Positions 12,857 through 16,830 of a stretch of DNA of 54,711 nt are shown one piece after another. The notes below the pieces were generated by a model, which was given only the letters and a program-made list of their open reading frames with translations, made no database searches and was not told the origin of the DNA. The translations under genes and the position numbers were made by a program. The stretch comes from a virus: IMG/VR virus record IMGVR_UViG_3300028888_000177, positions 1 to 54,711 of that record; one strand, written 5' to 3'. Positions within the stretch are counted from its first letter, which is position 1; each line of letters begins with the position of its first letter.

Positions 12857-12885
12857 ATTATAAAAAAATTTTTTTGAAAAATCAA
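12857..12885 (-). promoter_or_regulatory. sigma70-type promoter (TTGATT-17-TATAAT)
   Basis: Minus-strand ttgatttttcaaaaaaatttttttataat, upstream of ATG 12818. Confidence 0.5.
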
Positions 12886-14795
12886 CTGATTTTCTCTAAA
12901 AATTCTTCTTCTGTGAGGATAGGAATCCCCAACTTTTTTGCAGCTACATTTTTTGCTGATGTAGATTCTGCATTATTATTGATCAAATAATCAACATTTT
13001 TTGATATAGCAGATACGACTTTACCACCGCATTTTTCAATCAAATTTTGTAATTCAGTTCTGTTTTTAAAATGTTTAACAGAACCTGTGATTACAAACTT
13101 CATATCTTTTAATGGCTGTTCTGATACTTCAATAACAGTTGGCGCTGGCTTCACATTTAGAATACCGTATAATTTATCGGCTTCTGTATAATCAAAATTA
13201 GTTAATGCTTGAGATTTAGTCCAAGCAAAGCCAGGCAATTTAGTAAAATCATATCCTTCATCAATCGCTTTTGATAAAGCTTCATAAGTTTCAAATTTTT
13301 TGGCTAAATCAGCAGCGATTGTTCTACCAATGAGAGGAATACCAAGAGAAGCAATAAAAGCCTCGGTAGAACAATTTTTACTCTCTTCAATGGAATCAAG
13401 AATTTTTTCAACAGACTTAGCACCAAAGCCAGGTTTTACAACCCATTCTTCAGCGTGATCTCGCAAAGAAAATAAATCAACACAATTATTTACCCAGCCC
13501 CAATCAATTAACTTTTCCAAAGTTGCTTTAGAGAGACCTTTTATATCGAGTCCTTTCTTGCCGCAAAAATGGTCGAGTTTATTGATTAGTTTACCATCGC
13601 AATCGGGATTAGTGCAATATAATTGAGATGACTCATTAATTGCTGTTCTACTGCCGCAAATAGGACAAATTTTTGGAATATCAAAATGAAAATCCTCAGA
13701 AGAGTTTCTTTTTTCTGCCTTACTCACTTGCGGAATAATCATATTTGCTTTATAAATCCAAATCTTTTCTCCTTTATATGGTAAGTCTCCCAATAGTTCT
13801 GTCATAATGCTAAGATTATGTAAACTTGCTCTATTACATACTGAACCATCTATGTCAATATCTTCATATACTGCTATTGGAGTTAAAATTCCAGTTCTGC
13901 CCATAGAATATTCAATATTTTGCAGAGTAGTTTCATATTCATCATCATAAAACTTATATGCAATAGCGTTTTTAAAATGATGTGCAGTTTCACCCTGTTG
14001 TTTTCCAAAATCTACTTCATCGAATTTAAATACTATACCATCAATTGGATAACTCATACATTTTGCTGTTTCAGTTAACCATTCAATACAATGTTCAACT
14101 GATCCTTTTTCAAATGGTACAATAGTAAATCCTTCAAAAGTAAGTAAAAGCAATCGAGAATAAACATTATTATCATTTGGAAAACCTTTGATTACATCCC
14201 ATGCAACAAAAGTCAAGTTGCGTTTTGCACACTCTTTACTATCAAGAAGTCTTATACTTCCAGCCGCAAAATTGCGAGGATTTTTATATGTATCTGAGAA
14301 AGGCTTAAAATCTTCATAGGTACAAATAATTTCTCCATCAACAACCAGTTCTTCTGGATATGGAATTGTTTTTGGAATAGATGGAATAACTAAGGCATTA
14401 TGCAAAATATCTTCACCAATAACGCCATTTCCACGCGTTTCTGCAGAAATCAACTTGCCGCCGATGTATCTCAACGAACAAGTCAAACCATCCATTTTAC
14501 ACATAGCAACATAATCATTATCTTTACCTAAAAACTTTTTTACTTCTTCTATGTCTTTAGTTTTATCAAGAGACAACATTTTATGATTATGTTCTACTTT
14601 CCTTAATTCATTAACTACTTGATAAATAATTGTCTGTGTAGGGGATTCATTAAGATGAATCCCCGTATCTTCTTCCATTTGAACGAGCTTAAAATAAAGT
14701 TCATCCCACTCTTTATCGCTAACTTCTGGATGTCCTTCATCGTATTTTTTAGTAAGATAATTTAGTCTATCGACTAAAGCTTTCATTTCTTCCAT
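12882..14795 (-). CDS. ligA: NAD-dependent DNA ligase LigA (intact, TAG-free)
   Basis: Adenylation motif 'CKMDG', OB fold, Cys4 zinc finger 'CPICGS...CTNPDC', HhH region and C-terminal BRCT domain. 637 aa. Confidence 0.9.
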   Translation of the reverse strand: MEEMKALVDRLNYLTKKYDEGHPEVSDKEWDELYFKLVQMEEDTGIHLNESPTQTIIYQVVNELRKVEHNHKMLSLDKTKDIEEVKKFLGKDNDYVAMCKMDGLTCSLRYIGGKLISAETRGNGVIGEDILHNALVIPSIPKTIPYPEELVVDGEIICTYEDFKPFSDTYKNPRNFAAGSIRLLDSKECAKRNLTFVAWDVIKGFPNDNNVYSRLLLLTFEGFTIVPFEKGSVEHCIEWLTETAKCMSYPIDGIVFKFDEVDFGKQQGETAHHFKNAIAYKFYDDEYETTLQNIEYSMGRTGILTPIAVYEDIDIDGSVCNRASLHNLSIMTELLGDLPYKGEKIWIYKANMIIPQVSKAEKRNSSEDFHFDIPKICPICGSRTAINESSQLYCTNPDCDGKLINKLDHFCGKKGLDIKGLSKATLEKLIDWGWVNNCVDLFSLRDHAEEWVVKPGFGAKSVEKILDSIEESKNCSTEAFIASLGIPLIGRTIAADLAKKFETYEALSKAIDEGYDFTKLPGFAWTKSQALTNFDYTEADKLYGILNVKPAPTVIEVSEQPLKDMKFVITGSVKHFKNRTELQNLIEKCGGKVVSAISKNVDYLINNNAESTSAKNVAAKKLGIPILTEEEFLEKIS

Positions 14796-14816
14796 ATTCT
14801 TTTACCTTACATTTTA

Positions 14817-14845
14817 ATTATAAAATATTTTTTTTGAATTGTCAA
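14817..14845 (-). promoter_or_regulatory. sigma70 consensus promoter (TTGACA-17-TATAAT) for ligA
   Basis: Minus-strand ttgacaattcaaaaaaaatattttataat. Its -35 element overlaps the stop codon of the ligase paralog. Confidence 0.55.
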
Positions 14846-16830
14846 TAAATATTACTCAAAAACTCTTCTTCTGTGATGATAGGTATATTAAGCTCTCTTG
14901 CGGCAATATTTTCTGGACAATTTGATTCTGGATTATTATTAATTACATAATCTACATTTTCTGTAACTTGTGAAATTACTGCTCCGCCTATACCATGAAT
15001 ATAACCACAAAGCCATTCTACGCTATCAAAATATTTTACTGGACCAACTACTACATAAGTCTAATTTCTTAATGGCATATCAAAATAGTTCGCAGTATAG
15101 TCTATTTTTTCACCATATTTCATAATTTTCCACAATATATTTGCTTCACAATAATCAAACTCTAATAATGATTGAATTTGATTATCATTTAAAGCCAATG
15201 CATTGTCTAACAGATTATTTCCTTCAAAATAAATTGAATCTAAAAAGTTTTCATATGTTTTAAAATGGTTAGCAATTTTTATTGCATCTTCTTTAGTAAT
15301 AAATGGGATAGATAAAGCCGATAAAAACTCTGCAAATGAGCATTTTTTACTATTTTCAATATTATTTAATAAATTAGAAACAATATGTTTATTAAAATTA
15401 GGGATACATGACCATTCTTTTTTATATTTTTCTAAAGTATAAATATCTGTTAAATTATTAATCCACTTTTTTTCATAAACTAACCATCTTAATAAATCCT
15501 CAGAAAAATCAGTGATATTTAATCCATCTTCTCCAAAGAAATGTTTAATTCTATTAAATAATTTACCTTGACAATGTTCATTTGGACATTCAATAAAATT
15601 AATTTCATGCATTGGTGACCAATGATCATAGGTATAATTTATTGTTGTTCCACAATATGGGCATACAGTTGGAATAACAGATGTATCAAAATAAATTTTA
15701 CTTGATGATGTTGAATTATCATCTATATCTTTTAAATATGATGATAAAAATTTTGTCTTATAAATATAGATTGTCTAATTATAATATAATTTATTATTAA
15801 AAATATCTTTTATCATATCTTTTATTGTATTAAACGATAATTTAGTATGGCAAATAATCTAATTATCTACAATTAATGGAGTATGAAATAAAACTGGAAT
15901 TAATTTATTTTCACCATTATCAAATTCCCAAATAATATCTTTTAATTTTTGAGTATAAATTAAATCATAACAATGATAATATAATACATTTTTATAGTTA
16001 TTTTCTGTACTTTTATTTTTTTTAAAAAGAATTTTTGAGAAAGATAATTCTCTCTAATGTCCTCTACCTTTTAAATAATTAATATAAGGCAAATCAATAA
16101 TTGCCAAATTCATCATTTGAGAAATAGCAAATCCTAATTCATTTATGAAGCACATATTCTAATAAAAATAAGGAGTATCTTCTAATCCAGATATTATATC
16201 AGTGACTAAAAAAGAAATACCAATATTTTCAAAAGTATATAATGATGAATTTATATCATTTAAAGCATTTAAAACAATGTCATAAATAGTCTTTGATTTA
16301 TCTAATAATTTATAATAAATCATTCTTGGTAAACATGTTAGTTTACCTTTTATTATTAATTTTTTCTAATAATTAATACGTCTTGGAACAGAAGATGTTA
16401 TTGATAAAACTTTTTTAAATATGTTTTTATCAATAACATCTGGTTCATAAGCAACCGCAGCCATTAAATATCCCTAATCATATTCTAAATAACAAGTTAT
16501 GCCTTCTGGTTCTATTACAGCAACAGTGGTTTGTGAATTATTAACAAAATCAACAACTTCCTAAAAATTATAAGTTTCTCTTGGAATAAAATCATGTCTA
16601 TAGTCATATGTTATTAAATTATTATCTGAAATACTATCCAAATCTACTACTTTGGTTGGTGTATCTTCCATTACGATTCCACTCATTTTTTCCAAAGTTA
16701 ATAAATCAAAATATAAAGAATCATATTCTTCATCAGAAATTACTGGAGATCCTTCATTATATTTTGCTTTATAATAATTTAATCTATTTACTAAATTAAA
16801 AATTTCGCCTTGATACTTTGTTGATAACAT
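14842..16830 (-). CDS. LigA paralog, TAG-rich (at least 8 in-frame TAG, no TAA/TGA); adenylation lysine lost, so a predicted non-catalytic ligase homolog
   Basis: Fragments 16561..16830 and 15061..15612 plus the tail to TGA 14842 lie in one frame. The N-terminal Ia domain 'ISDEEYDSLYFDLLTLEK' is kept, but the position of KxDG reads 'EPEG'. Zinc finger 'CPYCGT...CPNEHC' and BRCT 'NVDYVINNNPES...' are retained. Confidence 0.6.

Follow-up and report, generated by a model that had tools for sequence, protein, structure and literature searches.

Why would a phage keep, next to an intact NAD+-dependent DNA ligase gene, a second ligase-like gene of full length that carries many in-frame TAG codons and has lost the catalytic lysine? 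The question is raised by the IMG/VR virus record IMGVR_UViG_3300028888_000177, of which we analysed positions 1 to 54,711 (54,711 nucleotides; hereafter 'the window'). Two minus-strand genes are at issue: the open reading frame (ORF) at 12882..14795, which we call lig1, and its adjoining paralogue, which we call lig2. The answer that we favour, giving it a little better than an even chance, is that lig2 encodes a non-catalytic, LigA-shaped protein that arose by tandem duplication and is kept by selection, an adaptor with an exchangeable N-terminal half (N-half) whose production would be gated by TAG. The anatomy and the evolutionary pattern of lig2 are solid and unusual; the mechanism is what we infer from them.

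Few inactive paralogues of core replication enzymes have been recognised in phages. Here a natural contrast is offered within 4 kb: a TAG-free conserved copy stands beside a copy that is TAG-laden, AT-rich, catalytically stripped and under selection, and the latter exceeds all other genes of its neighbourhood in divergence by a wide margin.

An intact ligase gene and its TAG-containing paralogue

Exact translation of lig1 (637 aa, TGA stop) gave 637 codons with no internal TAG, TAA or TGA and with the catalytic-lysine site of motif I present as CKMDG (KMDG at 14487..14498, minus strand), in agreement with the initial annotation of this DNA, which had described lig1 as a TAG-free gene with KMDG. 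The lig1 product matched every Pfam LigA domain and scored above both NCBIfam LigA equivalog cutoffs (451.4 versus 369 for NF005932; 450.6 versus 444.45 for TIGR00575); in an alignment with LigA of Escherichia coli and T. filiformis all motifs were in place. Judged by its sequence, lig1 is an ordinary NAD+-dependent DNA ligase.

The lig2 gene occupies 14842..16959 of the minus strand. It has 705 codons and a TGA stop, and 11 of its codons are in-frame TAG (first bases, in descending order, at 16920, 16896, 16839, 16563, 16476, 16368, 16161, 16056, 15861, 15777 and 15063). The initial annotation had set the gene at 14842..16830, as a frame of about 660 codons with at least eight TAG and neither TAA nor TGA. 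For that segment the description stands (662 sense codons, exactly eight in-frame TAG, no TAA, TGA or frameshift, a TGA stop), but the start had been placed 129 nt too far downstream. The frame stays open up to an ATG at 16959, 25 nt past the gyrA stop, and the 43 extra N-terminal residues, an extension specific to lig2 in comparison with LigA, match the N-termini of the orthologues P0001 and P0002; thus, we take 14842..16959 to be the true gene. In alleles whose extension was missed by gene callers it starts at TTG, 7 bases after AGGAGG. In the window allele the Shine–Dalgarno (SD) sequence, GGAG, is situated 15 nt from the lig2 ATG, a spacing that suits instead a five-codon, out-of-frame mini-ORF (MNYYE; 16960-16984, minus strand); this mini-ORF was dropped, since the closest allele, that of locus L006, has ATA where the mini-ORF starts with ATG.

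With a GC content of 23.5%, lig2 is the most AT-rich and the most TAG-rich gene of the window, and the other two frames of 14842..16830 contain 46 and 92 TAA and TGA codons. Given its length at such a composition and the density of stops in the other frames, the open frame of lig2 is not due to chance. DNA was examined for eight lig2 alleles. All of them are open over 658-715 codons at 22-27% GC and contain 7-22 TAG, the first of these at codon 5-39, but neither TAA nor TGA, nor a frameshift.

These properties have consequences for annotation. Under the standard code an annotation pipeline would split lig2 into fragments, and the protein database already holds a 183-residue fragment identical to the window lig2 as well as a 78-residue BRCT fragment of another allele. 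Pipelines that use code 15 may call lig2 a DNA ligase, which is almost certainly a wrong label.

Loss of LigA motifs and retention of the LigA fold

A blastp comparison aligned lig1 with lig2 over the whole length of both (30% identity, E 1e-90) and placed KMDG of lig1 opposite EPEG at residues 150-153 of lig2 (16501..16512, minus strand). Proper alignment of the two recovered no lysine at the KxDG site, where EPEG had been reported initially. The motif I lysine is missing from all lig2 alleles; other alleles read INPEG, IEPVG, VDPIG, INPTG or PDPYG, and the eight other members follow the pattern [IVP][END]P[EVITY]G.

The losses extend well beyond motif I. In an alignment of nine proteins of the lig2 type and nine active ligases the lig2 consensus has neither the Lys and Asp of motif I nor TRGxG of motif Ia, and the Glu of motif III is replaced by an invariant Lys. 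Also gone are NPRN with the next Arg, the DG of motif IV (DGxVxK), the Lys of motif V (AxKF), GRTG and LHN of the OB domain, the GFG and GIxxxG hairpins of HhH and the TG of BRCT; all of these are present in lig1 and in the active homologues, the nucleotidyl-transferase motifs and arginines in seven such homologues. In the light of mutagenesis of the E. coli LigA and of the 2OWO structure, we take the lost residues to act in adenylation or in DNA contact. The lig2 product scored 135.8 bits with NF005932 (cutoff 369) and 132.7 bits with TIGR00575 (cutoff 444.45), and in a Pfam scan only BRCT passed. By the KxDG of motif I, by the nucleotidyl-transferase motifs and by the equivalog cutoffs, lig2 falls outside functional LigA.

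By homology, fold and zinc finger lig2 belongs to the LigA superfamily. It matched PHROG 3869 over residues 55-703 (E 3.6e-44). The domain Ia signature is retained as SDEEYDSLYF (16708..16737, minus strand; SDxEYDxLY in the family), and several NMN (nicotinamide mononucleotide)-contact residues of domain Ia persist; precomputed matches to PF22745 (Nlig-Ia), all weak or faint, are recorded for five of the seven orthologues looked up and not for P0122 and P0123. The Cys4 zinc finger (C433, C436, C458 and C463; 15571..15663, minus strand) is invariant in all alleles. The BRCT domain (14845..15078, minus strand) is of a family-specific type, 86-100% identical across all allele classes, with a ratio of nonsynonymous to synonymous substitution rates (dN/dS) of 0.06-0.2. 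The structure was modelled for P0001, the orthologue 86% identical to the window protein; the AlphaFold2 model had a mean pLDDT of 79, and its best Foldseek matches, at E 1e-27 to 1e-37, were LigA structures of full length, with further matches to adenylation-domain structures and to the split ligase of phage PR1.

Thus, LigA (TIGR00575; 2OWO of E. coli; 1DGS of T. filiformis) and lig2 share the domain order Ia-NTase-OB-Zn-HhH-BRCT (NTase, nucleotidyl transferase; Zn, zinc finger), the fold and the four cysteines, while lig2, unlike LigA, has no motif I lysine, stays far below the equivalog cutoffs and carries an invariant BRCT of its own. Domain Ia, Cys4, HhH and BRCT had all been listed as kept in the initial annotation; this is right for Ia, Cys4 and BRCT, but HhH persists as a fold only, without its G-phi-G hairpin signatures. 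The notion of a conserved, catalytically dead LigA homologue, also proposed there, is supported, since all alleles are without the lysine and other adenylation residues. Sequence and model together suggest that lig2 has the shape of LigA without its chemistry, and the canonical LigA contacts to DNA are probably gone as well. In the scenario that we propose, lig2 would have lost the nucleotidyl-transfer site and most DNA-contact motifs before the family diversified, keeping the LigA fold and the zinc finger and evolving its own almost invariant BRCT.

Two alternatives are to be considered at this point. One of them, raised initially as a DNA-end-binding role, is that lig2 is a non-catalytic binder of nicks or ends that clamps DNA as LigA does and protects, marks or competes for nicks. 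Retention of the full domain order and fold, the invariant Cys4 zinc finger, strong purifying selection on HhH and BRCT and the location of lig2 among replication genes would all suit such a binder. The role is weakened, however, by the loss of most LigA DNA-contact signatures: OB GRTG and LHN, recognisable G-phi-G hairpins of HhH, the NTase arginines and the BRCT TG are all replaced in the consensus, and we regard this explanation as unlikely. The other alternative is an enzyme with a rewired active site, e.g. another nucleotidyl transferase or an NAD+/NMN binder. It could account for the invariant Lys that stands, within what used to be the pocket, where motif III had its Glu, for the persistence of SDxEYDxLY and for purifying selection on NTase and OB (dN/dS 0.34). 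Still, with all six nucleotidyl-transferase motifs lost, few invariant residues in the N-half and only 25-40% identity there between allele classes, we see a very slight chance for it.

TAG as a probable glutamine codon

ARAGORN detected 10 tRNA genes in the window, two of them suppressor tRNA genes with the anticodon CTA, both on the minus strand. The acceptor stem and G73 of the first (46416..46490) are like those of the window's tRNA-Gln(TTG), and those of the second (46689..46763) are like those of its tRNA-Gln(CTG). Reading TAG as a sense codon reveals 66 closely packed ORFs on the minus strand, 28 of them containing TAG; as all 66 reach TAA or TGA, TAG is not needed as a terminator. In the alignment of the lig2 family, where one member has TAG the others show an excess of TAG (9-fold) and of Gln (3.6-fold); Glu and Lys are in excess there as well. 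In two close lig2 pairs four out of seven TAG changes are exchanges between TAG and CAA. What characterizes code 15 (TAG to Gln) is therefore found here: tRNA(CTA) genes, and TAG used at Gln positions and not as a terminator. TAG very likely stands for Gln in this phage, which matches the recoding known from gut phages. With the first TAG so early in every allele and two tRNA(CTA) genes at hand, the sequence also bears out the initial claim that translation of lig2 depends on a suppressor tRNA.

The use of TAG differs sharply between genes. It makes up 40% of Gln-type codons in the lig2 alleles and none of the 11-16 Gln-type codons in lig1 and gyrA, in any genome (P 3e-4 to 4e-3 per gene at the lig2 rate). 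TAG is present in the RecJ-like and DnaB-like genes; the RecJ-like gene (DHH/RecJ_OB; 1214-2992, minus strand) has nine in-frame TAG codons, so not all genes of DNA metabolism avoid TAG.

Distribution of lig2 and selection

The protein collection contained lig2 orthologues with 86, 51, 45 and 43% identity to the window protein, and a profile search run exhaustively on 1.84 billion representatives added three more lig2 classes; the profile scores drop from 677 bits for the last lig2 class to 320 bits, where canonical ligases start. Searches of nucleotide collections gave no further alleles. A 9-kb piece of the locus had no megablast match among 50,697 phage records, tblastn of lig2 and lig1 against the phage records returned canonical ligases only (up to 39% identity; the closest cultured phage was Clostridium phage c-st), and IMG/VR, JGI metagenomes and GTDB genomes yielded canonical LigA only (up to 32% identity). 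The lig2 family, recovered through the protein collection only, appears to be confined to one uncultured phage group, with contigs of up to 176-188 kb. Wherever the sequence is long enough, the gene order gyrB-gyrA-lig2-lig1 seen in this part of the window (all on the minus strand) is kept, and the neighbourhood of lig2 in the related loci includes the SPbeta-type markers YorF, YorH and YonG as well as UDG, RNase H, ThyA and DnaB.

We estimated dN/dS by the Nei-Gojobori method, with TAG treated as Gln, in two close pairs of alleles, the window with L006 and L003 with L008. The values for the whole gene, 0.29 and 0.25, respectively, indicate purifying selection. In these pairs NTase and OB together had dN/dS of 0.34-0.35 (95% bootstrap intervals 0.23-0.52), the zinc finger with HhH 0.15-0.23 and BRCT 0-0.06; in sliding windows of 60 codons the values were 0.05-0.11 over HhH and BRCT and 0.14-0.68 over the N-half. 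The argument made initially, that a frame kept open over such a length speaks for selection, is confirmed by the eight intact alleles with dN/dS well below 1.

In trees built separately for the N-half, for the zinc finger with HhH and for BRCT, the lig2 alleles are monophyletic, each time as sister to a clade of phage lig1-like sequences. With one lig2 clade in all three regional trees, we conclude that catalysis was lost once, before the classes diverged.

These data bear on a further alternative, in which lig2 would be a pseudogene in decay, or else several fragments with TAG acting as a real stop at their ends. The gene does look the part, with its GC content of 0.235, the highest TAG count of the window and no Pfam ligase domains. 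All the same, frameshifts, TAA and TGA are absent from all eight alleles (658-715 codons); dN/dS amounts to 0.25-0.29 for the gene and to 0.05-0.1 for its C-terminal half; the BRCT sequence hardly varies; Gln is found opposite TAG, the window has suppressor tRNAs, and the RecJ-like and DnaB-like genes contain TAG too. The intact alleles, dN/dS well below 1 and a dead state that has persisted since before the divergence of classes exclude decay for practical purposes, and we give this explanation almost no credence.

Hypervariability of lig2 and putative cassette exchange

Between the window and L003, lig1 is 99.7% identical, with a synonymous substitution rate (dS) of 0.04, and gyrA is 99.5% identical (dS 0.16), whereas lig2 is 44% identical with dS of about 0.8. 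The same is seen more broadly: for 22 genes (about 20 kb) compared with five other genomes, full-length orthologues are 85-100% identical and lig2 41-50%, the other exceptions being a mobile GIY-YIG endonuclease gene and a small gene whose presence varies by genome. Between phages the lig2 alleles share no more than 38-50% identity across classes, against 89-100% for the flanking genes, lig1 included, and the other TAG-containing genes of the locus are not divergent.

The 5' boundary of the divergent region is sharp, with DNA identity of 97-100% up to the gyrA stop and a collapse immediately after it. The 3' boundary is graded; identity climbs through the last ~230 nt of lig2, which encode BRCT, to reach 97-100% in lig1. 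By its flanks the window is nearest to L003, while by lig2 it pairs with L006; the lig2 of L003, in turn, pairs with that of L008, although L008 is the most distant genome by flanks. Neutral divergence in place cannot exceed the dS of the flanks; thus, the divergent lig2 alleles have moved by recombination in conserved arms, and the conflict between allele class and flanks points to a cassette exchange of lig2. In the proposed scenario related phages would swap the Ia-NTase-OB half in the form of allelic cassettes that have diverged deeply, and recombination would take place in the conserved flanks, gyrA on one side and BRCT/lig1 on the other. We favour seeing the N-half as a variable module, either tolerated or selected.

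A diversity-generating retroelement was considered as the cause and rejected by reasoning: divergence covers ~1.9 kb and affects all base types, with no short adenine-targeted repeat.

The gyrB-like gene of the locus also differs between genomes. It is uninterrupted in the window (19748-21676) and split by a GIY-YIG endonuclease gene in L003 (4089-7092) and L009 (292-3267); this looks like a mobile insertion of intron or intein type that varies between genomes.

Promoters, duplication and the predicted timing of expression

A promoter with a 12/12 match to the sigma70-type consensus (TTGACA-N17-TATAAT; 14817..14845, minus strand) precedes lig1. As the initial annotation had pointed out, its -35 element (14845..14840) overlaps the TGA stop of lig2 (14844..14842). 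The -35 and -10 elements and the 17-nt spacing are identical in seven loci, and the rest of the 58-nt stretch compared in these loci shows single-base differences only, in the spacer or in the downstream leader.

A second copy of this promoter is located downstream of lig1 (12857..12885, minus strand). The segment 12847..13003 is homologous to 14807..14963; the last ~150 nt and the downstream spacer of lig2 and lig1 have ~72-76% DNA identity, and both aligned stretches carry the promoter, TTGA...TTCAAAAAAA...TATAAT. As 3' ends and spacers align with the promoter included, the duplicated unit consisted of the ligase ORF and the promoter behind it. The origin of lig2 would have begun with a tandem duplication that took in the phage's NAD+-dependent ligase gene and the promoter downstream of it.

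Proximity and likeness of the two genes suggest one more alternative, namely that lig2 is a LigA mimic which competes with lig1 or with the host LigA for a shared partner and, being synthesized only once the code has switched, lowers nick sealing late in infection. The gene always adjoins lig1; the last ~37 residues of BRCT are the part in which the paralogues are most similar, at the DNA identity just given; and gating by TAG would delay lig2 relative to lig1. However, a mimic would not be expected to have an N-half with 25-40% identity between classes next to a lig1 conserved at 89-100%, and we find this explanation rather improbable.

On its 5' side lig2 follows the gene for a gyrA-like topoisomerase subunit (16985..19333, minus strand; 782 aa, no TAG), whose stop is located 25 nt upstream of lig2. 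Across alleles lig2 starts 13-25 nt after gyrA and has an SD sequence; we found no promoter and no predicted terminator between gyrA and lig2. With no promoter of its own and an early TAG, lig2 would be co-transcribed with the TAG-free gyrase genes and would not be translatable past its first codons until a suppressor tRNA is supplied. In the scenario favoured here, lig2 would thus be the last gene of a transcription unit that starts with the TAG-free gyrB and gyrA, and it would be translated only once a Gln-type tRNA(CTA) becomes available, with lig1, TAG-free and having its own consensus promoter, expressed independently.

The lig1 promoter belongs to a family of extended sigma70-like promoters (TTGATTTTT..AAAAAA.TATT.TATAAT) with eight copies in the window, all on the coding strand, where 0.01 would be expected by chance. 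They are located, on the minus strand, at 12857-12885, 14817-14845, 31455-31483, 34028-34056, 40710-40738, 43532-43560, 45488-45516 and 54610-54638. Each copy stands directly upstream of a TAG-free gene or of a tRNA cluster, and the family may represent a class that is read before the code switch.

Such an arrangement has parallels in the gut phages that use code 15 (10.1101/2021.08.26.457843; phAss-1 group, PMC10607447). These phages likewise carry tRNA(CTA) and have TAG in a subset of genes only, and their presumed early and replication genes are TAG-free, as here. Borges et al. (10.1101/2021.08.26.457843) proposed that in-frame stops delay an intron endonuclease encoded in an early transcription unit. 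In contrast to that example, the gene presumably gated here is a hypervariable pseudoenzyme paralogue beside a TAG-free active copy. The word 'ligase' was not found in the main text of the papers on recoded phages (10.1101/2021.08.26.457843; PMC10607447).

A proposed role for lig2

The strongest constraint in lig2 is found in its HhH-BRCT half, where canonical signatures have been lost and a new, family-specific sequence has been fixed; for this reason we favour a protein-docking role for this half. In the proposed scenario the conserved half would dock onto a conserved partner protein, leaving the N-half as the exchangeable part of the adaptor.

A more specific version would make lig2 a conflict-driven pseudoenzyme: a LigA-shaped decoy or inhibitor anchored by its invariant BRCT, whose degenerate catalytic half is maintained as exchangeable cassettes by frequency-dependent selection and whose synthesis is locked by early TAG codons to the phase after the code switch. 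We consider this version speculative and, on the present evidence, unlikely. If it is true, lig2 would act in a conflict between phage and host or between phages and would belong to a type of phage accessory factor not described before, one that derives from an enzyme of core replication.

Several observations weigh against the adaptor scenario. Diversifying selection was not demonstrated, as no dN/dS window exceeded 1 (the maximum was 0.68 in the two close pairs), and no gene in the 20-kb neighbourhood co-varies with the lig2 allele class. The flanking genes are themselves in conflict (between L003 and L008, dS is 0.90 for gyrA and 0.32 for lig1), and the diversity of lig2 could have built up long ago by neutral divergence in a domain under weak constraint and have been redistributed by general phage mosaicism. 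As to timing, the sequence ahead of the suppressor tRNAs yielded no strong promoter. The density of TAG correlates negatively with the GC content of genes (Spearman -0.585, P 1e-5, for window genes of at least 100 aa); TAG richness may reflect passive AT drift in a weakly expressed gene and not a timing device, although the two explanations are not mutually exclusive. Finally, the invariant Lys at the motif III Glu and the kept NMN-contact residues leave room for a rewired nucleotide pocket. Two testable questions are raised by the gene pair: whether recoded stops time protein production within an early operon or accumulate under weak selection, and what a ligase scaffold that does not ligate is doing.

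Among the known systems closest to lig2 is the split LigA of T5-like phages (PR1, PDB 9HU3 and 9I5I; PHROGs 3359 and 3498), where, likewise, two adjacent phage genes derive from LigA; the chains of the PR1 split ligase match structurally the corresponding halves of the P0001 model. In T5 and PR1, however, each gene makes half of one active enzyme. We rejected a split heterodimeric ligase of this type, since lig1 and lig2 each cover the whole length of LigA. Comparable, too, are pairs in which a dead paralogue is the partner or the opponent of an active one, such as the deoxyhypusine synthase (DHS) prozyme of trypanosomatids (PMC3663545) and the poxvirus pseudokinase B12 (PMC6395007); here the inactive member is reported to be likewise kept by selection; these pairs represent other enzyme families, and their likeness to lig1 and lig2 is an analogy only. 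In a literature search covering inactive LigA paralogues, heterodimeric phage ligases and ligases without the catalytic lysine, no inactive LigA paralogue was found.

Other features of the window

Apart from the eight-copy family, two consensus promoters, one perfect and one near-perfect, stand back to back in divergent orientation at 22633-22661 (plus strand) and 22696-22724 (minus strand). The pair adjoins a short segment that in related loci matches its own reverse complement.

The gene at 48340-50661 (minus strand) encodes a secreted-looking protein of 773 residues with S-layer homology domains. Taken together with the SPbeta-type markers and with the nearest ligase being that of Clostridium phage c-st, this protein points to a Bacillota host.

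After lig2, two adjoining minus-strand genes are among the most TAG-dense of the window. One (50680-51375) encodes a cysteine-rich protein of 231 residues with no Pfam match and has five TAG codons; the other (51385-52506; 26% GC) encodes a radical SAM protein and has seven. These neighbours could be a modified-peptide pair.

At the other extreme are four TAG-free genes with 49-52% GC in a genome of ~33-36% GC (26880-28358, 31830-33176, 38228-40675 and 41914-43455, all on the minus strand). Their products are an SPFH/flotillin protein, a PHA02142 OB-fold protein (RNA-ligase-like), a protein with the shoulder and repeat domains of the major vault protein, and a DUF2828 and DUF7788 protein. The composition of the four genes suggests either recent acquisition or special expression; the vault-protein-like gene and the DUF2828 and DUF7788 gene each follow a copy of the promoter family.

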